In this document: piece after piece, positions 15,005 through 52,970 of the stretch | Position numbering within the stretch: the first letter of the stretch is position 1 | Layout of the letters: each line of letters opens with the position of its first letter | DNA from: Candidatus Nomurabacteria bacterium | GTDB taxonomy: Bacteria > Patescibacteriota > Minisyncoccia > Phycocordibacterales > UBA5272 | Direction: 5' to 3' | DNA: 64,000 bases | Assembly (NCBI GenBank): GCA_029288775.1 | Contig: JARIGQ010000004.1 | Span: 3,303 to 67,302, forward strand | Translations under genes and position numbers: made by a program | Notes under the pieces: generated by a model | Told to the model about the DNA's origin: nothing | Database searches by the model: none | The model's input: only the letters and a program-made list of their open reading frames with translations

Positions 15005-18000
15005 CTAGGTAAGCATCTTGATTTCGTCGACTACAAGGGTCTTTTCTCCGTTCCTTGTAGCCACTTTCCCGCGCACAACGATCGGCACATCAAGGACAAT
15101 AGAAGATTTGTAGCGCTTATAGGTTTCGGGGAACACGGCAACTTCCATAGCCCCTCTATAGTCTCGCAGGCGTACAAGAGCCATATGGTCGCCTTTTTTG
15201 GTTTTGGTGATCTTGGAGTTTTCAATGATTGCAGCCAGGGAAACTTCCTTACCATCTGCTATATCGTGGTGTATTTTTTCAATGTCTAATCCTCGTGCAG
15301 CAATTTTTTCTTTCCATGGATCAAGTGGGAAACCGGAGACAAAGAGTCCAAGCAGCTCTTTTTCCCATTGTAATTTTTGTTCTTGAGAAATAGGGGGAGC
15401 AGGTTTCATGACAAAAGATGTTGTATCTTCTGTACCAAACAATGAATCTTGCAGCACGTTGTCTTTCACTACGTGCTTATGGAAAGCGAGGATGTTATCC
15501 ATGTTTGCAAGTATTTGTCCGCGATCACCAAGTTCGTCGAGTGCACCACACATGGTGAGTGCTTCGAGAGATTTTTTGTTGAGGTTTTTATGCGTTACTC
15601 GGCGAATGAATTGTTCAAATGAAGTGAAGCGCCCGTTCTTATTCCGTTCTTCGATGATTGCATCCGAAATATCTACTCCTAAGTTTTTAATGGTGTAGAG
15701 TCCGAAACGAATTTCTTCTTTACCATTACTATCTTTAATAATGGAGAAACCTCCTTCGGATGCGTTTACATCCGGTGGAAGCACATTGATATTCATACGT
15801 TTACATTCCGCCACAATTTCTGCAATCTTTTCTACGTCTCCCGATTCATTTGTCATAATCGCTGTCATGTACGCGACAGGGAAGTTTGCTTTCATGTATG
15901 CCGTCTGGTACGCCACACGACCATAACTTGCAGCATGAGCCTTGTTGAATCCATATGCGGCAAATGGTTCGATTTGTTCCCACAGCAAGTCCGCCTTTTT
16001 TTGCGAAAGTCCATGTTCAATGAATCCTTGCATGAGCTTTTCTTTTTGCGCTGCCATTTCTGCAGGAATCTTTTTACCCATAGCTTTGCGAAGCTTATCC
16101 GCTTCAAGCCACGAGTACCCCGCCAAGTGAATAGCGATGAGCATCACGTCGTCTTGATATACGATGACACCGAATGATTGATCGAGTACTTGCTCAAGAC
16201 GTGGATCCACAAAAGAAATGAGCGAAGGGTTATGTTTTCGCTTGATGTATTCGGGAATCATTTCAAGCGGTCCCGGACGATAGAGCGCCACCATGGCGTT
16301 GATGTCGAAGATGGTTGAAGGTTTTAGTTCCTTTAAAAACCGTGTCATGCCAGAGCCGTTTAATTGGAAGAGTCCCATCGTTTCTCCGCGAGCAAGCATG
16401 TCAAATGTCTTTTGATCATCAAGCGGAATTGCTTCTATATCGAGCTTTACTCCATAACGGTCCTCGGCAATTTTAATGGCATCTCCTAAGATGGTGAGAT
16501 TACGAATACCCAAGAAGTCGAATTTAAGCAGACCGGCATCTTCGATCGTATACATATCATATTGTGTGATGATCTTGCCGCCTTTGGGATCTTTTTGTAT
16601 TGGGGTAAAGTCCCAGAGCGGAGAAGGGGAGATTACCGTGCCTGCTGCGTGTACAGAGATGTGTCGTGCACATCCTTCTACTTTTTGTGCCATGTCGAGA
16701 ATCATTTGTACTTCACGATCAGTGTCATACATTTCCTTAAGTTCCGGAACATCAACAAGCGCACTTGCAATGGTGACAGGGAATCCTTGTTTGGGTGGAG
16801 GAATCATTTTGGAAATTCTATCGCCAACGGTGTAGGGGAATTTCATTGCGCGCGCGACATCCTTCACTGCGCCACGAGCCATCATGGTACCGAAGGTTCC
16901 GATCTGGGCCACGTTATCAATTCCGTATTTGCTTCGTGCATAATCAATTACTTCATCGCGTCTTGTATCGGCATAGTCCATATCGATATCCGGTGCAGAC
17001 GGACGTTCTGGATTGAGAAAGCGTTCAAATGGAAGCTTGTATTCAAAAGGGTTACATTTTGTAATTTGAAGCAAATACGTTACGAGTGAGCCCGCAACCG
17101 ACCCTCGAATATTAGTGAGAATATTATTTTCTCGCGCGAAACGAAGAAGGTCGTATACCACAAGAAAGTATGGAGAATAGCCTTTGTCTGCAATCACTTT
17201 AAGCTCATAATCTAAACGCTCTAGTACATGCGGAGCAGGCTCCATGTCTCGTACTTGAAGTCCTGCATAGGCAAGCTCACGGAGATCTTCATCGTAGCTT
17301 TTTTTGAATTCAATATTGGGAAATACCCATTTGCCTAGAGGTATTTGTACATCACACAATTCGGCAAGCTTAACTGTGTTTTCAAGCGCATCCGGAATAT
17401 CTGCATATTGTTTCGCTGCTGCCTCTGGATCCACAAAAGAAAAGTCTTCTTTTTGAAAAAGGTGTGCGTATCTGTTTTGAGAGTATTCGTCACCGTGGAC
17501 AAAGTACAGTGTTTTGTGAGCTGCTTTATCATTAGGGCTTAAATAGTGTGAATTCCAGGTTGCAATAAGAGGGGTGTTTGTTTCGCGTGCAAGAGCGATT
17601 GTTTTTTCCCGCATAAGTGGTCCATGTTCCATTGCAGTATGCGGATTGATCTCGAGAAAGAAATGTTCACCAAAGTGTTCCTTGTAAAAAGCTAAGCGCG
17701 TCCTCGCTTCTTCTTCATTAATCGCCAGAAGATTGCTCACCTCTCCCCATTGTCCACCCGAAAGGAGAGTGATCCCATCTTTGTAGGTGAGAAGTATGTC
17801 TTGGGTGAGTACTGGTTCCAGTGGATTCTCGACGTTTACAATAGAGGTAATACGCATGAGATTTTTATAGCCCTGCAAACTATGTGCAATGAGAACTGTT
17901 TTAAACTTCCTGTCATTGTAATGAAGGTCAAATTCCACCCCTATGATAGGTTTTAATCCTTCTTTTTCACACGCTTTAGAAAACTCAATAGCGCCATACA

Positions 18001-42623: not shown

Positions 42624-42708
42624 TAATTTCAGTACATTACAGTACAATACAGTAATCAGTGGATGTGATAGAAGATAGTAACAAGTACATGCAGTAAATA
42701 CAGTGAAT
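42624..42708. repeat. Intergenic CAGTA-array element A (CAGTA arm only)
   Basis: CAGTA at 42630, 42640 and 42650 (exact 10-bp phase), CAGTG at 42657, CAGTA at 42692 and CAGTG at 42701. Confidence 0.7.
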
Positions 42709-42729
42709 GCTAGGCGCAGGAAATATAAC

Positions 42730-45051
42730 ATGAAAGAAAATATGAAAAATAGAATAAGTAAGAACGTAGCAGCGATAAAAAGGCAAAGCCTTTTTATCGC
42801 TGTATTACTGATCGCCCTTTTCTGTAGTACTGTATGGACTAAAATCACTATATCAACTGTATTTACTGTACCCACTGCGTCTGCTGCCATTGTTCCCGTT
42901 CAGCCCTCCAATCAGGGTCTTGTTGGATATTGGAAGTTTGATGAAGGGGAAACGGCAACAGCAAAGGATTATTCCGGCAATCGTCTCAATGGAACTTTAA
43001 ATAATTTTTCCAGTACACCCTCTACCACAAGCGGATGGCAGACAAAGGGGAAAATAAATGGAAGTATTGCGTTGGATGGTGTGGATGATTATGTGCATAT
43101 TGGTACCCCGTCCGCTTTAAATATTACAGGAGATCTAACTCTTTCTGCTTGGGTAAATCCGCGAGCTTACACAAGTAATCCGTGTGGAGGAACTGCTCAA
43201 TTTCCGGTCTTTGGAAGAATCACTAATAGTAGATCTCCCTATGTTTTATCTATTGCCGCTAATTCTATCCTTTTTGGTAATAACCTTACTTCGGGAGGAG
43301 ATGTAAATAATTGGCAATATTTGATCCCCTCAACTTCGAATCCTGTTAATAAATGGGTACATGTAGCAGCGGTACGCTCTGGTACTACAATGATGGTTTA
43401 TAAAAATGGAGTTTTATTAGCTACTTCTACTCTTTTAGGTCCTAGTGTAAACACCTCATGGTCCGGGATACGTTTTGGGTTTGATGGATGTGGGAATTAT
43501 TACGCATCTGGATCCTTGGATGAATTATATATTTACAATCGAGCCTTATCTTCTTCTGAAATTGCTTATCTTGCAAAAAATGCCCCAACGTCAATTGGTG
43601 CTACGGCCACTTCCACTGCTTCATCGCTTACAAATGGCTTACAGCTCTACTACTCTTTTGATGGGAAAAATACTACGCCTACTTCTATTCCAGATATGTC
43701 TGGCAATGGGAATACAGGGACCGGATCATCAAGTACTGCCTTTGCTACCGCAGGGTCACTTAGTACGGGGAAAATAGGGCAAGGGGTTTTACTTACTTCT
43801 ACAACCACTGGTGCCTCGTATGTTCAGTATATTGATACAGGTTCCTCGACTTTTAACATTACGAATAAACTTACCATTTCTGCCTGGATTAAACCTAACG
43901 CAGCAGGGATCAAGACAAACACCATTCTTTCAAATGCCCGCGACTGCGGTGGTTGTGGCACATATAAAGGATTTAATTTCGGTAGCACTGCCGCCTATAA
44001 TGGTCTTAGTTTTTCCTATTTCGATTCTAATTCTTCGGGTCCGTTTGGTCTTACTGTGAGTAATTACTTTCCTCCAATTAATACGTGGACACATTTGGTA
44101 GTAACATTTAATAACAAAGTCACTAAAATTTATGCTAATGGAGTTTTAATTTCAAGTGGTACTATCGGAGGTACAGGTACAATAGGTACTCCTTTTAGTT
44201 TTGACAGTTTTGTTGGACGATATGGTTTTAGTCCAGGGTTCGGTTCTTCAAATGCTGTGTATGATGAGGTGCGTCTTTATAACCGAGATTTAAGTGTGAG
44301 TGAAATACAGCAGCTCTATAAGCTTGGGCAAGTGAAGCTTGCAAGCTCGGACCCCATATCTGCTCAATCAGGCACCGCTTCAGGACTCGTTGCTCATTTT
44401 ACTTTTGATGGCAAGAATATGACTTCAACATCTACTCTCGATAGTTCTGGTGGAGGAAATACCGGAACCTTAAACGGATCACCTCGTACAGATATTGGAA
44501 AAATTGGACAGGGATTAAGGTTTAATGGGAATGGTCAGTATGTTTCTCTTCCGAACTCCTCTCTTGAGCTTTCTGTACCGCTTTCATTTTCTGTATGGAT
44601 TAAACCAGTTCTACCTTCCTCTGCCGCAGGTTTAATTACTACCGATAAATCAGGAAGTAGTGTTCACTCAGGAGCTTGGATTGATTTACAAAGCAACGGA
44701 GCGCTAGGTCTAAACTACGGAAATAATACTATATGCGGCCCGACGGGTAGAAGATCATTTGCTACAGGTGGAGGGGTTATACAATCAAATAAATGGTACC
44801 ACGTTGTGGGGATTATACGTGGTCCAGTGGATATGAGTATTTATGTAAATGGAGTAAATATAAGCGGGTCATATAGCGGATCTGGTACCAATATTGTTTA
44901 TAGATCCGATTCAGGTCCTAGAATTGGAAGGGAAGATAATTGTTTAGCGAATTATTGGGACTATAGTGGATTAATGGATGATGTCCGTATCTATAATAAG
45001 GCACTTTCTGCTGCAGAAGTTCAACAGCTCTATAAATTAGGAGGAAAGTAG
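42730..45051 (+). CDS. Secreted protein with three LamG/concanavalin A-like lectin domains (Laminin_G_3 type)
   Basis: N-terminal TM/signal segment (LFIAVLLIALFCSTVW). Three repeats of the LVGYWKFDEG...DYSGNRLNGTL...GKINGSIALDG.DDYV ... LYIYNRALS pattern. The ORF track starts at GTG 42703; ATG 42730 is preferred. Confidence 0.75.
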   Translation: MKENMKNRISKNVAAIKRQSLFIAVLLIALFCSTVWTKITISTVFTVPTASAAIVPVQPSNQGLVGYWKFDEGETATAKDYSGNRLNGTLNNFSSTPSTTSGWQTKGKINGSIALDGVDDYVHIGTPSALNITGDLTLSAWVNPRAYTSNPCGGTAQFPVFGRITNSRSPYVLSIAANSILFGNNLTSGGDVNNWQYLIPSTSNPVNKWVHVAAVRSGTTMMVYKNGVLLATSTLLGPSVNTSWSGIRFGFDGCGNYYASGSLDELYIYNRALSSSEIAYLAKNAPTSIGATATSTASSLTNGLQLYYSFDGKNTTPTSIPDMSGNGNTGTGSSSTAFATAGSLSTGKIGQGVLLTSTTTGASYVQYIDTGSSTFNITNKLTISAWIKPNAAGIKTNTILSNARDCGGCGTYKGFNFGSTAAYNGLSFSYFDSNSSGPFGLTVSNYFPPINTWTHLVVTFNNKVTKIYANGVLISSGTIGGTGTIGTPFSFDSFVGRYGFSPGFGSSNAVYDEVRLYNRDLSVSEIQQLYKLGQVKLASSDPISAQSGTASGLVAHFTFDGKNMTSTSTLDSSGGGNTGTLNGSPRTDIGKIGQGLRFNGNGQYVSLPNSSLELSVPLSFSVWIKPVLPSSAAGLITTDKSGSSVHSGAWIDLQSNGALGLNYGNNTICGPTGRRSFATGGGVIQSNKWYHVVGIIRGPVDMSIYVNGVNISGSYSGSGTNIVYRSDSGPRIGREDNCLANYWDYSGLMDDVRIYNKALSAAEVQQLYKLGGK

Positions 45052-45251: not shown

Positions 45252-45437
45252 ATGGTAGTACGAATGAGACACACCCGAGCGCATACGGCTAACCGTCGCT
45301 CACACCACGCGCTTAAGGCAGCGAACCTTGTTGCTTGCAAGAACTGTAACGCCATGAAGACTCCGCACCGCGTTTGTGACGCCTGCGGCTATTATCGTGG
45401 CCAGAAAGTGCTTACAATAAAGGCAAAGGTGCAGTAA
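45252..45437 (+). CDS. rpmF: 50S ribosomal protein L32
   Basis: RRSHHALKA...C.NC...K.PHRVC.CGYYRG, the L32 signature with a Zn-ribbon. Confidence 0.8.
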
Positions 45438-45553
45438 ATTAAGTAGTTTCAGTATATACAGTGCCCAGTAAGTTGCATTAGGTAAGTAATTTCAGTAGCA
45501 CGATTACTGAGCCACTGAAACTACTGCATGCACTGGACTACTGAAATGTACTA
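45430..45553. repeat. Intergenic CAGTA/TACTG element C (both arms); overlaps the rpmF stop codon
   Basis: GCAGTAAAT includes the rpmF TAA. CAGTA/CAGTG at 45450, 45459, 45466 and 45493; then TACTG/CACTG alternating at 45504, 45513, 45522, 45531 and 45539, and TACTA at 45549 (9-bp phase). Confidence 0.75.
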
Positions 45554-45663
45554 CCCTAATGGGCTATTGAAATGCACTGCCTCCACTTTCCACAATTTTC
45601 GTTTTTCTATCTGCACATGTGCGCTACACTATACTGATAAGTAAGTCATAGATCTTTTCCTTC

Positions 45664-46563
45664 ATGAGTACTCGCCACATAGCCCGAACACTCGCTCTCC
45701 AAACACTTTTTGAACTCGACATGAAAGGTGAGCTTGGCATTACTCAGGATGCCGTAGAGCCTATTCTTATACGCAATAGGGACGAGTTTGGCGAAGGCAT
45801 AAAGGATGCCTCATTTGCAAAAGATATTTTGACCAACGCTCTTTCGCGCCGTATCACTATTGATGACATTATTACACGTGCGGCTCCAGATTGGCCACTC
45901 GAAAAAATTAGTACCGTAGATAGGAACATTTTACGCATTGGACTTACCGAGCTTTTGTTTGGTGATCGCGGACAAGTTCCTCCGAAGGTAGCTATCGACG
46001 AAGCAATAGAACTTGCAAAAACCTATGGTGGAGAAACTTCGGGCCGCTTTGTAAACGGTGTACTCGGCGCTATATATAAGGAAATGGGCGAACCTGAAAA
46101 GGAACAGACCACTAAGACCAAATCCGAGCATATGAAATCCGCTCCGAAAGAAATGCTTGCGGGTGCGGTCGTCCTTTCGAAAACTGATGGCAAACTCCAT
46201 GTCGGACTTGTCCATGATGTGTTTGGTTATTGGACGCTTCCAAAAGGACGACTTGAAGAGGGAGAGGATTTGGAGAAGGGGGCAAAGCGTAAAATTGAAT
46301 CTGAAATCGGTATTCCAGTTACTATTATGGATAAGCTTGGTGAGAATGAATATATCGCTAATAAGCCGGAAACTGGAAAGGTGGTCAAGCATGTAAGCTA
46401 TTTCTTGGCTACCGCAAAATATATTCCGCTTCAGCTCGAAAAGAAGACTGGCCTTGATGATGCTAAGTGGTTTGATGCTGATGAAGTAAGTGAGCTTCGT
46501 ATTTATGATGACATTAAGCCGCTTATCGAAAAGGCACTGTCTCTTGCTGAAAAGATTGTATAA
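45664..46563 (+). CDS. nusB: NusB (transcription antitermination) domain fused to a C-terminal NUDIX hydrolase domain
   Basis: N-terminus: ARTLALQTLFELD, LRIGLTELLF, AIDEAIELAKTYGGETSGRFVNGVLG (NusB). C-terminus: Nudix box PKGRLEEGEDLEKGAKRKIESEIGI (GX5EX7REUXEEXGU), after GAVVLSKTDGKLHVGLV. Confidence 0.8.
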   Translation: MSTRHIARTLALQTLFELDMKGELGITQDAVEPILIRNRDEFGEGIKDASFAKDILTNALSRRITIDDIITRAAPDWPLEKISTVDRNILRIGLTELLFGDRGQVPPKVAIDEAIELAKTYGGETSGRFVNGVLGAIYKEMGEPEKEQTTKTKSEHMKSAPKEMLAGAVVLSKTDGKLHVGLVHDVFGYWTLPKGRLEEGEDLEKGAKRKIESEIGIPVTIMDKLGENEYIANKPETGKVVKHVSYFLATAKYIPLQLEKKTGLDDAKWFDADEVSELRIYDDIKPLIEKALSLAEKIV

Positions 46564-46575
46564 TTCGGTGAATCT

Positions 46576-47268
46576 ATGACTCTTCAAGAATTTGAGCGCT
46601 CCATTTCAGTAACCTTCAAGAATAAGGCTCTTTTGGAGCAAGCGTTTATTCATCGTAGTTTTATTAATGAAAATCCAAGAAGCGGTTTGGAACATAATGA
46701 ACGCTTGGAATTTTTAGGGGATGCTGTCCTTGAGCTTGTGGTGACAGAATTTTTGTATGAAACCTATCCTCATCACAACGAAGGAGACCTGACCGCCTAC
46801 CGCTCAGCCCTTGTGAATGCGGTGACATTGGGCAAAGTGGCAGATGATCTTGGGTTTAACGATTTGATGAAGCTCTCCAAAGGAGAGGCGAAGGATGTGT
46901 CACGTGCGCGTTCGTCTATCTTGGCGGATGCGTACGAAGCATTCGTTGGGGCGCTTTATTTGGATCAAGGGTATAAAGAGGCAAAAGTATTTATTTCTAA
47001 AACGGTACTCATTAAAACAGAGGATATCGTCAAGCAAGGATTGTACAAGGATGCTAAAAGTTTCGTCCAAGAAAAAGCTCAAGAGGTGAGAAGTGTTACT
47101 CCTGCTTATCGTGTGCTTGGAGAGGAAGGGCCGGATCATGATAAACGATTCCGCGTAGGTATTTATTTTGGTGAAGAATTGATAAGTGAGGGTGTAGGTA
47201 AGAGCAAGCAAGAAGCAGAAACCGAAGCAGCTCGCGCCGCACTTATTAAAATGCAGTGGATGGAGTAA
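46576..47268 (+). CDS. rnc: Ribonuclease III
   Basis: ERLEFLGDAVLEL signature, ADAYEAFVGALYLD, and a C-terminal dsRBD (KSFVQEKAQEV...GVGKSKQEAETEAARAAL). Confidence 0.9.
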   Translation: MTLQEFERSISVTFKNKALLEQAFIHRSFINENPRSGLEHNERLEFLGDAVLELVVTEFLYETYPHHNEGDLTAYRSALVNAVTLGKVADDLGFNDLMKLSKGEAKDVSRARSSILADAYEAFVGALYLDQGYKEAKVFISKTVLIKTEDIVKQGLYKDAKSFVQEKAQEVRSVTPAYRVLGEEGPDHDKRFRVGIYFGEELISEGVGKSKQEAETEAARAALIKMQWME

Positions 47269-47406: not shown

Positions 47407-47766
47407 ATGCTGGAGTATAAAGATCTGATTGTTTGGCAAAAGGCTTTTGATCTGTCATTGCATATTTACAAAGCAACTGAACAATTTCCGGAGGTAGAAA
47501 AATTTGGTTTGCAATCACAAATGCGAAGAGCTGCTGTTTCTATCCCTTCTAACATTGCCGAAGGTAGTCGACGTGGAACTCATAAAGATTATATTTCTTT
47601 TCTTAGAGTTGCCGACGGGTCTGCGGCAGAATTGGAGACACAATTGTTGTTGGCTCATGCATTAAAGTATATGTCTGAACCTCAATTTACCACTTCGCAG
47701 GAACTTCTTATGGAAGTACGCAAAATGCTGCCTTCAGTGATAGGTAGGTTGCAATCTTCTTCTTAA
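47407..47766 (+). CDS. Four-helix-bundle protein (23S rRNA intervening-sequence protein family, TIGR02436-like)
   Basis: Family-typical MLEYKDLIVWQKAFDLSLHIYKATEQFP..EKFGLQSQMRRAAVSIPSNIAEGSRRGTHKDYISFLRVADGSAAELETQLLLA. Confidence 0.8.
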   Translation: MLEYKDLIVWQKAFDLSLHIYKATEQFPEVEKFGLQSQMRRAAVSIPSNIAEGSRRGTHKDYISFLRVADGSAAELETQLLLAHALKYMSEPQFTTSQELLMEVRKMLPSVIGRLQSSS

Positions 47767-47822: not shown

Positions 47823-48554
47823 ATGCGTTTAGATCAGGCGCTTGTAACACGTGCTTTATGCGAATCACGCACAGAAGCGCAGGAGCTTATCGAAAAGTCA
47901 TTGGTGCTTGTAAATGGGGTGATTGTTACTAAGCAAACAAAGGCAATCAAGGATACGGATGAATTGAGCGTACAAGGAAAGCGAAGTTTTGTATCCCGGG
48001 GAGGGGAGAAACTTAAAGGTATTCTGCAGGATATTTATGGAGATGAGGAAGTCATACAAAGCCAGGTGCAAGGAAAACAGGCACTTGATATTGGTTCATC
48101 TACCGGCGGGTTTACGGATTGCTTGCTTTCGTATGGAGCTGCGCACGTTGATGCGGTTGATGTGGGCACAGACCAATTTCATGCTCGATTACGAGGAGAT
48201 ACACGAATTACGCTTTTTGAATCTACAGACATACGTGCATTCCAAGCTTCCCGTGAGTATGATATCGTGGTTGCTGATCTTTCTTTTATTTCCCTTGAGC
48301 CTTTGTTTGAAACTATTCTTTCTTTTGGAAAAAATGGAACGGCATTTTTTCTTCTCATTAAGCCGCAGTTTGAAGTGGGGAAAGGAAATACGAAAAAAGG
48401 CATTGTAAAAGATATGGAGCTTGTGCTTTCACTTCTTAAAAAATATGAAGTCATCGCCAAATTACATGGAATGACTGATTTACAAATACTTCCGTGTCAT
48501 ATTCAGGGAGGTGAGGGTAATCAGGAATTTTTCTTATACGGAGTGTGTGCATAA
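47823..48554 (+). CDS. tlyA: TlyA-family rRNA 2'-O-methyltransferase (S4 domain plus FtsJ-like MTase)
   Basis: MRLDQALVTRALCESRTEAQELI..VLVNG (S4), FVSRGGEKL, LDIGSSTGGFTDCLLSYGAAHVDAVDVGTDQ. Confidence 0.85.
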   Translation: MRLDQALVTRALCESRTEAQELIEKSLVLVNGVIVTKQTKAIKDTDELSVQGKRSFVSRGGEKLKGILQDIYGDEEVIQSQVQGKQALDIGSSTGGFTDCLLSYGAAHVDAVDVGTDQFHARLRGDTRITLFESTDIRAFQASREYDIVVADLSFISLEPLFETILSFGKNGTAFFLLIKPQFEVGKGNTKKGIVKDMELVLSLLKKYEVIAKLHGMTDLQILPCHIQGGEGNQEFFLYGVCA

Positions 48555-52898: not shown

Positions 52899-52970
52899 TC
52901 CGCAGTAGCTCAGCGGTAGAGCAGCGCGCTGTTAACGCGTTGGTCGTAGGTTCGATCCCTACCTGCGGAG
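52899..52970 (+). tRNA. tRNA-Asn (anticodon GTT)
   Basis: Manual fold: acceptor TCCGCAG/CTGCGGA, D-arm GCTC-AGCGGTA-GAGC, anticodon stem GCGCG/CGCGT with loop CTGTTAA, T-arm GTAGG-TTCGATC-CCTAC, discriminator G; CCA is not encoded. Confidence 0.85.

Follow-up and report, generated by a model that had tools for sequence, protein, structure and literature searches.

The gene at 45664..46563 of the 64-kb stretch of DNA analysed here (the window, 64,000 nt in all) is best explained as an ordinary nusB gene of Paceibacteria, whose product carries a tethered and mostly non-catalytic Nudix module that would bind nucleotides or RNA 5' ends, a reading to which we give a probability of about 0.5. In every model organism, to our knowledge, NusB is a small factor made of a single domain. 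Known NusB proteins of about 130-150 aa consist of this domain alone, whereas the fusion protein adds to it a tethered Nudix domain of 140 aa. The features considered are the following:

45252..45437, + strand: rpmF (ribosomal protein L32), upstream neighbour (PF01783, E 5e-19)
45664..46563, + strand: fusion gene nusB::nudix, stop codon included (299 aa; ORF list and sequence)
45679..46080, + strand: NusB domain with seven helices, residues 6-139 (PF01029, TIGR01951, AF2 model)
46090..46134, + strand: flexible Lys/Glu-rich tether, residues 143-157 (low pLDDT)
46147..46560, + strand: Nudix-fold domain of the ApnA-hydrolase (aq_158/Ndx1) type, residues 162-299 (PF00293, PDB matches, Foldseek)
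46246..46314, + strand: degenerate Nudix box GRLEEGEDLEKGAKRKIESEIGI, residues 195-217 (direct reading, aligned to aq_158 and Ndx1)
46576..47268, + strand: rnc (RNase III), downstream neighbour (Ribonuclease III and dsrm domains)

The fusion gene and its occurrence

A canonical NusB had been recognised at the N-terminus by the sequence-only reading, and this identification stands, as both PF01029 (residues 6-139, E 2e-31, 109.4 bits against a cut-off of 23.1) and the TIGR01951 nusB model (115.5 bits against 88.35) score above their curated cut-offs. Moreover, the solved NusB proteins of Thermotoga, Aquifex, M. tuberculosis and E. coli were matched end to end (E 1e-19 to 1e-10), and the AF2 model places seven helices in residues 3-141, with a pLDDT mostly of 84-96. 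Judged by the equivalog model, this domain is an orthologous NusB and not merely a NusB-like protein. RsmB/Sun is the one well-known protein in which a domain of NusB fold stands N-terminally of an enzyme domain acting on RNA; it differs in that its C-terminal domain is a methyltransferase (16S rRNA m5C) instead of a Nudix domain. An RsmB-like protein was considered and rejected, since the RsmB models reach at most 52 bits against cut-offs of 269-540 and no methyltransferase domain is present.

Both halves are encoded in one uninterrupted frame, read directly from the sequence, with an ATG start and a TAA stop, and a protein 100% identical to the product is found in a public collection. All the peptides quoted in the sequence-only reading are present in this ORF, and the linker MGEPEKEQTTKTKSEHMKSAPKE is indeed Lys/Glu-rich and in frame with no hidden stop. 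Linkers across the family range from 4 to 44 aa in length (median 23 aa), and K makes up 19% and E 16% of their residues. The AF2 model shows an overall pLDDT of 85.6, which falls below 50 only in the tether, and a pTM of 0.56, which argues that the NusB and Nudix domains keep no fixed orientation to each other; as modelled, the two domains fold independently.

A frameshift or an assembly join around 46080-46150, noted at the outset as a danger to this interpretation, finds no support and has a practically negligible probability, since the same continuous single ORF of 294-331 aa occurs in 80/80 loci from different species-level Patescibacteria genomes, which come from independent assemblies of different studies. 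In this line, all of the best 120 database matches, ~300 aa in length, carry both PF01029 and PF00293. The high-identity matches resembling stand-alone Nudix proteins are contig-end fragments of the fusion, such as P0125, which starts 39 nt into its contig and is followed by rnc. An origin of the 'Rosetta-stone' kind, from an adjacent free Nudix gene, is unsupported because the short high-identity matches are such fragments. The nearest true stand-alone relative (P0141) sits among integrase, DNA-methylase and Rep_O-like genes, away from nusB, and two other stand-alone candidates (P0140 and P0152) lie on contigs too short to show their neighbourhood.

The gene context is equally stable. The adjacency to rnc, pointed out initially, applies to the window, where rnc starts 12 nt past the stop of the fusion gene, and to 80/80 related loci, in several of which rnc overlaps the end of the fusion gene; rpmF is found upstream in 79/80 of them. 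No second NusB or second Nudix was found within the 64-kb window. In all, 195 species-representative genomes encode a relative. Paceibacteria (Parcubacteria, candidate phyla radiation) form a large group of bacteria with very small genomes, most of them uncultivated; the fusion, far from being a rarity, is shared by hundreds of their genomes and represents the form that NusB normally takes in this bacterial class. Such a class-wide fusion suggests that transcription antitermination and rRNA maturation are wired differently in Paceibacteria. The sequence-only reading had also held that this architecture was not a described one, which is correct as regards the literature searched, including that on Parcubacteria, Patescibacteria and the candidate phyla radiation, where no paper describing a NusB+Nudix architecture was found; many copies, however, already stand in public databases, labelled plain NusB even though both Pfam domains have been computed there. 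At a practical level, the 'NusB' annotation hides a second domain, and the presence of a Nudix motif should not be taken as that of an active enzyme.

The Nudix domain and its degenerate box

The C-terminal domain is matched by PF00293 at residues 169-288 (E 6e-14, 52.6 bits against a cut-off of 21.1), and its best PDB sequence matches are 3i7u (6e-11) and 1vc8 (3e-10), corresponding to Aquifex aeolicus aq_158 (33% identity) and T. thermophilus Ndx1 (30% identity). Foldseek comparisons gave a TMt of 0.90 with an rmsd of 1.9 A for 3i7u, and a TMt of 0.84 for Ndx1. Together with these two, the nearest neighbours by sequence or structure comprise CT771, the Ap4A hydrolases of human and C. elegans, and Rv2985/MutT1. 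The domain descends from diadenosine-polyphosphate hydrolases or aq_158-type enzymes. It shares with aq_158 and Ndx1 the domain size and a C-terminal helix, but those enzymes are free-standing and keep a perfect REVWEE core, whereas the fusion protein has an RKIESE core and is joined to NusB. The nearest characterised relative, aq_158 (3i7u/3i7v), is an Ap4A/Ap5A/Ap6A hydrolase that has been renamed 'Omnivore RNA pyrophosphatase' and was shown in 2026 to convert in vitro RNAs carrying 5'-ppp, 5'-pp and many caps into 5'-p RNAs, and loss of its E51 kills the enzyme (PMC13145063).

The previous assignment of the domain to the RppH type has to be abandoned. RppH membership was rejected because the RppH models NF001936 and NF001938 give it 21.6 and 17.5 bits where their cut-offs are 118 and 116, about 100 bits short, and RppH is absent from the top sequence and structure matches of the domain. 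What the fusion protein has in common with E. coli RppH is the Nudix fold and a conceptual link to RNA 5' ends; the essential E53 of RppH is replaced by K210 at the same box position.

Nor is the Nudix box intact, as had been claimed. Set against the consensus GX5EX7REUXEEXGU, it reads G195-RLEEG-E201-DLEKGAK-R209-K210-I-E-S213-E214-I-G216-I217, so that the REUXEE core has become RKIESE, with two of its three glutamates lost at box positions 16 and 19. K210 (46291-46293) takes the place of the Glu following the Arg, and S213 (46300-46302) that of the first Glu of the EE pair, while G195, E201, R209, E214 and G216 are kept. Among the catalytic box glutamates of aq_158-type enzymes, only E214, equivalent to E51 of aq_158, is retained. 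The E53A change in E. coli RppH, at the box position of K210, renders that enzyme inactive in vitro as well as in vivo (PMC6061791), and a Mg2+-dependent pyrophosphohydrolase activity of the window protein is accordingly predicted to be impaired.

Loss of the box in orthologues had been named beforehand as a point against an active enzyme, and substitutions of catalytic residues turned out to be widespread. All three glutamates are kept in 92 of the 250 sampled fusions, a sample biased towards relatives of the window, and in 13/57 non-redundant lineages, compared with 33 of the 39 free-standing relatives that the same query retrieved; one canonical-box orthologue is the L043 protein, with a REIKEE core. 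Conservation of the RE-Glu itself is 30% in fusions versus 97% in free-standing relatives, and these figures mark the loss of catalytic residues as specific to the fusions. When the states of the box glutamates were mapped on a NJ tree, at least about 24 changes were required. Lys is the preferred replacement (66/116 changes at position 16 and 55/115 at position 19), whereas E214, E201, R209 and both box Gly are kept at about 90% across fusions. The damaged catalytic motif in this protein and in most relatives indicates that the Nudix domain of the window protein probably binds and does not cut.

An active RNA 5' pyrophosphohydrolase or decapping Nudix, brought by NusB onto boxA-bearing nascent transcripts so as to couple antitermination to 5'-end processing, with turnover of the leader by RNase III, is an unlikely alternative in our judgement, even though several observations speak for it. 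The closest characterised homologue yields 5'-p RNA, the equivalent of its essential Glu is still present next to E201, R209 and G195/G216, leaving room for a residual or altered catalysis, and the synteny with rnc is conserved. Moreover, 23% to 37% of family members, or between roughly one quarter and one third of lineages, have a perfect box, so that hydrolysis may be ancestral and may still be selected in some of them. Against it stand the Lys and Ser replacing two glutamates in the window protein, the inactivation of RppH by Ala at the first of these positions, the failure of the RppH family models, and the repeated and lineage-independent loss of catalytic residues while the remainder of the domain stays under purifying selection, which argues that catalysis is not what is conserved. 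The coupling of antitermination with RNA 5'-end processing advanced by the sequence-only reading survives in part: the activity of aq_158 on RNA 5' ends makes the connection with such ends a fair lead, but two of the three catalytic glutamates are lost in the window protein. Repeated loss of catalytic Glu under purifying selection offers in itself a natural experiment on the passage from an enzyme to a binding module.

Selection on the fused domain

Decay of the catalytic residues would also be expected if the Nudix domain were a functionless passenger, a fused neighbour gene decaying neutrally, and two further observations go in the same direction: the domain evolves faster than NusB (mean pairwise identity of 52% vs 64%), and in one relative (P0253) it is no longer recognised by Pfam. 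Such a passenger is nevertheless very improbable. The dN/dS of the Nudix domain is 0.02-0.18 in relatives, similar to that of the NusB half, with 0.034 for a pair carrying RKIEAE (L001/L002), and these low values point to strong purifying selection on a domain that is still functional. Many non-catalytic positions, comprising fold residues and the putative pocket residues W190, K194, K242, Y246, W269 and Y281, are 82-98% conserved, and there are conserved positions specific to the fusion (F187, P235, G238, G263, F270, L278 and D283). The host genomes are assumed to be strongly reduced, and the fusion ORF remains whole in all 80 loci, which also argues against a passenger. Three features of non-catalytic Nudix domains of the CFIm25 and NrtR type, namely the Nudix fold, a degenerate box and maintenance under selection, were found here.

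Selection could also act on a purely structural role, in which the Nudix domain would be a protein-docking subunit of the Nus complex with no nucleotide ligand. The precedent is SuhB, an enzyme-fold protein of the E. coli rRNA antitermination complex that must be present for NusB/E to be integrated stably into the rrnTAC (PMC6614801) and works with NusB/E on boxA RNA; it is, on the other hand, a separate polypeptide with an inositol-monophosphatase fold, unrelated in sequence or fold to the Nudix domain. Nudix proteins without enzymatic activity are recognised as a class (PMC5389931), the fusion-specific conserved positions are of a surface type, and the domain is acidic, as are other docking modules. 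We consider this scaffold quite unlikely, however, because W190, K194, K242, W269, Y281 and E214, which lie outside the catalytic triad and are shared with active free-standing enzymes, are more conserved than a scaffold needs, and because in the AF2 model the Nudix domain makes no fixed contact even with the NusB domain to which it is joined. The acidity of the fused Nudix domain (mean pI 5.7, net charge -4), which exceeds that of the free relatives, argues against generic binding to the RNA backbone, and RNA binding through positive charge was discarded as unsupported.

Probable ligand binding and a possible role in antitermination

For the preferred reading, a tethered binding module, we infer ligand binding without hydrolysis from the conserved non-catalytic residues of pocket type and from the precedent of CFIm25 (NUDT21, PF13869), a protein of Nudix fold lacking two catalytic Glu, which binds Ap4A and ATP and leaves them unhydrolysed (PMC2425470). 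Like the fused domain, CFIm25 has two catalytic glutamates replaced and belongs to an RNA-processing machine acting alongside transcription; it differs in being a subunit of a eukaryotic pre-mRNA 3' processing factor, from another subfamily and with another partner. A precomputed match to PF13869 exists in a few fusion relatives and there is none in the window protein. A second parallel comes from NrtR (Nudix-related transcriptional regulator), a ligand sensor that joins a degenerate-box Nudix domain to a domain for nucleic-acid binding, and whose Nudix domain (3gz8) is the structural match number 6. In NrtR, the partner is a DNA-binding winged helix and the ligand ADP-ribose, whereas here the partner is NusB.

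The N-terminal domain would act as NusB in the complex for antitermination and rRNA maturation, where it would bind S10 and boxA RNA, and the Nudix domain of the window protein would serve mainly as a tethered binding module instead of an efficient hydrolase, with Lys standing perhaps in place of the lost Mg2+ ligands. Its likeliest ligand would be either a nucleoside polyphosphate (ApnA or NTP-like) or, on the boxA-bearing transcript held by NusB, the triphosphate or cap at the 5' terminus. Where the box is intact, in a minority of lineages, hydrolysis of such ends by the domain may persist. The idea of a binding module can be tested cheaply with recombinant orthologues having canonical and degenerate boxes.

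A more specific and tentative proposal, rather unlikely as it stands, is that NusB has acquired in Paceibacteria a tethered 'reader', sensing either the chemistry of RNA 5' ends or dinucleoside-polyphosphate alarmones, which would gate the assembly of the antitermination complex and the hand-over to RNase III. NusB would hold boxA, both that of the nascent rRNA leader and that of its own mRNA, while the Nudix domain captures a nearby 5'-triphosphate or Np4N cap, a group that lineages with a canonical box might also remove. The status of the 5' end, or the level of a stress nucleotide, could in this manner control the antitermination complex and the hand-over to the co-encoded RNase III. If true, the reader would constitute a direct physical link between a Nus factor and the sensing of 5' ends, of a kind unknown in model bacteria.

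The window itself holds no rRNA operon (no rRNA and one tRNA only within the 64 kb), and a boxA-like element is not clearly present in it; the 226-nt spacer upstream of the fusion gene folds no better than shuffled sequences (z = -0.53). Relaxed boxA matches at 16327 and 17677 were taken as chance because the ORF of a large opposite-strand gene, DNA polymerase III alpha-like as assigned from its translation only, contains both of them. Among the relatives, a boxA-like element of the form GYTCYTT N1-2 A[A/C]A is found upstream of nusB (GCTCTTTTAAAA) at a median of 17 nt from the gene, with matches in 27/80 loci compared with 0.002 expected per 50-nt window; the motif at ~17 nt is counted in 27-36 of the 80 relatives. 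An element of this kind upstream of the fusion gene resembles, and fits with, the autoregulation described for Nus factors (PMC5725501).

A NusB-Nudix protein encoded next to rnc

The window encodes a lineage-wide, selected two-domain protein, in which a canonical NusB half is joined to a Nudix fold of the ApnA-hydrolase type. Its gene lies among the following features:

45252-45437: rpmF (L32), the upstream neighbour
45664-46563, + strand: uninterrupted nusB::nudix reading frame of 299 codons (ATG start, TAA stop), in which Pfam recognises NusB at residues 6-139 (E 2e-31) and NUDIX at residues 169-288 (E 6e-14), each match exceeding its curated threshold
46576-47268: rnc (RNase III), beginning 12 nt past the stop of the fusion gene
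47407-47766, + strand: 23S-rRNA-IVS-type four-helix protein of 119 aa (PF05635, E 3e-40; weak bAvd-like match), between rnc and the TlyA-like gene
47823-48554: TlyA-like S4+FtsJ methyltransferase

All the peptides quoted in the sequence-only reading are present in this frame, and its description of the N-terminus as a canonical NusB holds, as indicated by PF01029 (E 2e-31), by the NCBIfam equivalog model TIGR01951 (nusB; 115.5 bits against a cut-off of 88.35) and by the solved NusB structures of Thermotoga, Aquifex, M. tuberculosis and E. coli, which align across the whole N-terminal half. It belongs to the NusB family, and not to RsmB. In an AlphaFold2 model built with 74 homologues (mean pLDDT 85.6, pTM 0.56), the NusB half forms seven helices, and residues 162-298 adopt a beta-grasp alpha/beta/alpha Nudix fold. 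Since pLDDT falls below 50 at residues 143-157 only, and given the pTM of 0.56, two well-folded domains are predicted, joined by a flexible tether that leaves their relative orientation unfixed. Across the family, this tether spans 4-44 residues (median 23), with 19% Lys and 16% Glu in its composition.

Among 5.8 billion proteins searched there is an entry with 100% identity, and the best 120 matches (70-92% identity) are all of ~300 aa and carry PF01029 together with PF00293; those that bear a name in the database are called simply "NusB" or "N utilization substance protein B". When GTDB was scanned with each species represented by one genome, 195 encoded relatives emerged, and the best 80 of these all come from Patescibacteria metagenome-assembled genomes. 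The taxon range is that of the labels on the sequence records, which for these 80 loci read Nomura-, Zambryski-, Kaiser- and Wolfebacteria, Paceibacterota and Parcubacteria, together with many generic 'uncultured Candidatus Saccharibacteria', one Gracilibacteria and a few 'bacterium' or 'uncultured bacterium'. A single frame of 294-331 aa was found in 80/80, with rnc directly downstream in every case, as noticed before for the window, rpmF upstream in 79/80, and tlyA after rnc in most of the closer loci. The short, highly similar Nudix matches that seem to stand alone are fragments of the fusion at contig ends, such as P0125, which starts 39 nt into its contig and is followed by rnc. A frameshift or assembly join as the origin of the fusion is refuted by these fragments and by the 80 single frames, and together with the domain architecture of the 120 best matches they establish a genuine in-frame fusion. 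The claim that this architecture had not been described stands for the literature searched, where no mention of a NusB-Nudix fusion was found (the word NusB is absent from a 2017 survey of the Nudix clan), although the variant is not rare in databases, which hold it abundantly with both domains precomputed and an annotation of NusB only.

Among the relatives, a 577-aa protein (P0174) has ~300 additional residues N-terminal to NusB+Nudix, and in another of 293 aa (P0253) the Nudix half is so divergent that it escapes Pfam at E<=0.001, yet it matches the window domain at 1e-11. The 23S rRNA intervening-sequence gene looks like an insertion specific to the window genome, because no homologue was detected in 80 related loci. 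The product of 42703-45051 (+; 782 aa) has a hydrophobic N-terminal segment and three repeats ending ...DE(L/V)x(I/L)YN(R/K)xLSxxE(I/V)xxL..., and from its translation looks like a repeated LamG/concanavalin-type surface protein. An Rfam scan of the 64-kb window found no rRNA operon, its sole family match being a tRNA gene (52899-52970, +).

A boxA-like element upstream of the gene

The rpmF-nusB spacer is short in relatives (median 59.5 nt) and measures 226 nt in the window (45438-45663). Just 5' of the start codon, relatives carry a boxA-like element, which reads exactly GCTCTTTAACAA in L023 and GCTCTTTTAAAATCGT-ATG in five loci, with other examples in L004, L006, L007, L028 and L031 (region 12-50 nt upstream of the start, L001-L037 and others). 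Allowing up to 3 mismatches to GCTCTTTAACAA, it occurs in 36/81 upstream regions versus 6% of shuffles, with a median onset 17 nt before the ATG. Moreover, the relaxed pattern GYTCYTT N1-2 A[A/C]A falls within 50 nt upstream in 27/80 loci versus 0.002 expected per window, and these 27 are the majority of its 46 same-strand matches in 600 kb. The published consensus, GYTCTTTAANA, is gamma-proteobacterial, and boxA near start codons mediates autoregulation of Nus factors at suhB and, putatively, at the ribH-nusB locus of Pseudomonas (PMC5725501). These elements suggest that NusB/S10 may autoregulate the fusion gene in relatives and support the N-terminal domain as a probable working boxA-binding NusB in the lineage. 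The window's own spacer holds no clear boxA copy, only a weak candidate (CCACTTTCCACAATTT, 45583-45598), and its predicted RNA fold is unremarkable and does not surpass that of shuffles (z = -0.53); TTTCAGTA/TACTGAAA also occur in this spacer as inverted copies.

Type of Nudix domain and state of its box

By sequence, the best solved relatives of the Nudix domain are the Ap4A hydrolase aq_158 of Aquifex aeolicus (3i7u, E 6e-11) and the Thermus Ap6A hydrolase Ndx1 (1vc8, E 3e-10), followed by Chlamydia CT771 and the human and nematode Ap4A hydrolases, and Bdellovibrio RppH and Dcp2 match at E ~1e-2 to 1e-3 only. Structure comparison gave the same order, with 3i7u (TMt 0.90, 1.9 A, 33% identity) before Ndx1 (TMt 0.84); the diadenosine polyphosphatases MutT1/Rv2985 of mycobacteria come next, and the Nudix domain of NrtR ranks sixth. 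RppH family models were missed by ~100 bits. From these sequence matches, structure matches and failed models, the domain can be assigned to the ApnA-hydrolase type, and not, as proposed from the sequence, to the RppH type.

Neither is the Nudix box intact, as had been read: in G195-RLEEG-E201-DLEKGAK-R209-K210-I211-E212-S213-E214-I215-G216-I217, compared with the consensus GX5EX7REUXEEXGU, the core REUXEE has become RKIESE, where K210 and S213 replace the Glu expected at box positions 16 and 19, which makes the domain an atypical member of its superfamily, with the fold present and the motif failed. The closest clade around the window protein has RKIE[S/A/Q/K]E as its core, K16 and E18 being fixed and position 19 drifting. 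Position 16 corresponds to E53 of E. coli RppH (Nudix motif, residues 38-60), whose E53A mutant shows no activity in vitro and no complementation in vivo (PMC6061791). From helix geometry, E212 at position 18 would point away from the metal site and offer no substitute.

An active 5'-end hydrolase in the window protein, the activity imagined in the proposal that antitermination is coupled to RNA 5'-end processing, is unlikely. In its favour, E214 is retained, the equivalent of E51 in aq_158, where replacement by Ala is also inactivating (PMC13145063); against it stands the broken box. The link to RNA 5' ends itself has an unexpected foothold in the nearest homologue, an RNA 5' pyrophosphatase, and this is part of what makes the fusion interesting: aq_158 was reported in 2026 to convert RNA 5'-triphosphates, diphosphates and m7G, NAD, FAD, Np4 and sugar caps to 5'-monophosphates (PMC13145063).

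Evolution and possible role of the Nudix half

When the Nudix half alone was searched exhaustively with HMMER against 1.84 billion cluster representatives, 2273 matches reached E<=1e-3, 155 reached E<=1e-10 and 17 reached E<=1e-30; the closest are fusions or their fragments, and free-standing proteins of ~140 aa appear from ~45% identity downwards. Box columns were taken from one HMM alignment of all collected domains. Among 250 fusions, a sample enriched for relatives of the window, all three Glu of REUXEE are kept in 92, two in 82, one in 72 and none in 4; at position 16, 134 proteins have Glu and 66 have Lys, at position 19 the corresponding numbers are 135 and 55, and the last Glu persists in 243. 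After thinning to 57 lineages (<60% identity), the numbers with three, two, one and no Glu are 13, 21, 19 and 4, and the RE-Glu at position 16 is conserved in 30% of fusions versus 97% of 34 free-standing relatives, collected with the same query as a control for query bias. A rough parsimony count on a neighbour-joining tree of 236 fusions gives at least ~24 changes between canonical and non-canonical boxes. Substitutions of the box Glu, which the sequence-only reading had named as speaking against its proposal, are thus widespread in orthologues; to judge from the aligned boxes, the catalytic Glu can be dispensed with in most lineages and is partly missing in the window protein.

The domain is nevertheless not decaying, and its rate of evolution is only somewhat above that of the NusB half (mean pairwise identity 52% vs 64%). 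Its dN/dS is 0.02-0.18 over 13 unsaturated pairs, irrespective of box state (0.034 for the degenerate-box pair L001/L002), and neutral decay behind the altered boxes, like an artefact, is very improbable. Conservation is 82-98% at W190, K194, K242, Y246, W269 and Y281, residues that the free enzymes mostly share; F187, P235, G238, Y246, G263, F270, L278 and D283 are conserved specifically in fusions. A scaffold that acts independently of any ligand could draw on such fusion-specific positions, but we regard it as rather doubtful, given the residues held in common with the enzymes. Lys is strongly favoured where Glu is lost, although a single mutation could equally turn Glu into Gly, Asp, Ala, Val or Gln, which suggests that its charge compensates for the loss of a metal site.

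We give about even odds to the Nudix half being a binding module. The NusB half would nucleate the S10/boxA complex, and the Nudix half of the window protein would bind, without hydrolysing it, either a nucleoside polyphosphate or the 5' end, triphosphorylated or capped, of the transcript that carries boxA. Precedents are CFIm25, a Nudix fold without two catalytic Glu that binds Ap4A and ATP but leaves them unhydrolysed within an RNA-processing factor (PMC2425470), the recognised class of non-enzymatic Nudix proteins (PMC5389931), and SuhB, an enzyme-fold protein required for NusB/E to be integrated into the complex for rRNA antitermination in E. coli (PMC6614801). The family would then display an enzyme becoming a non-catalytic module. 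Generic RNA binding is counted against by the acidity of the fused domain (mean pI 5.7).

A second case of this Nudix type joined to a nucleic-acid-binding module is P0223, found in the search of representatives (379 aa, 37% identity, same subfamily) and fused to sigma-70 region 4 and DnaA C-terminal helix-turn-helix domains, with the same Glu-to-Lys change at position 16 (core RKTREE). The nearest genuinely free-standing relative, P0141 (L081 6001-6453; 150 aa, 42% identity), has a canonical REAQEE box and no nusB nearby; from its neighbouring genes, with weak or faint phage-integrase and Rep_O-like matches and a DNA-methylase match, it lies on a mobile-element-like stretch.
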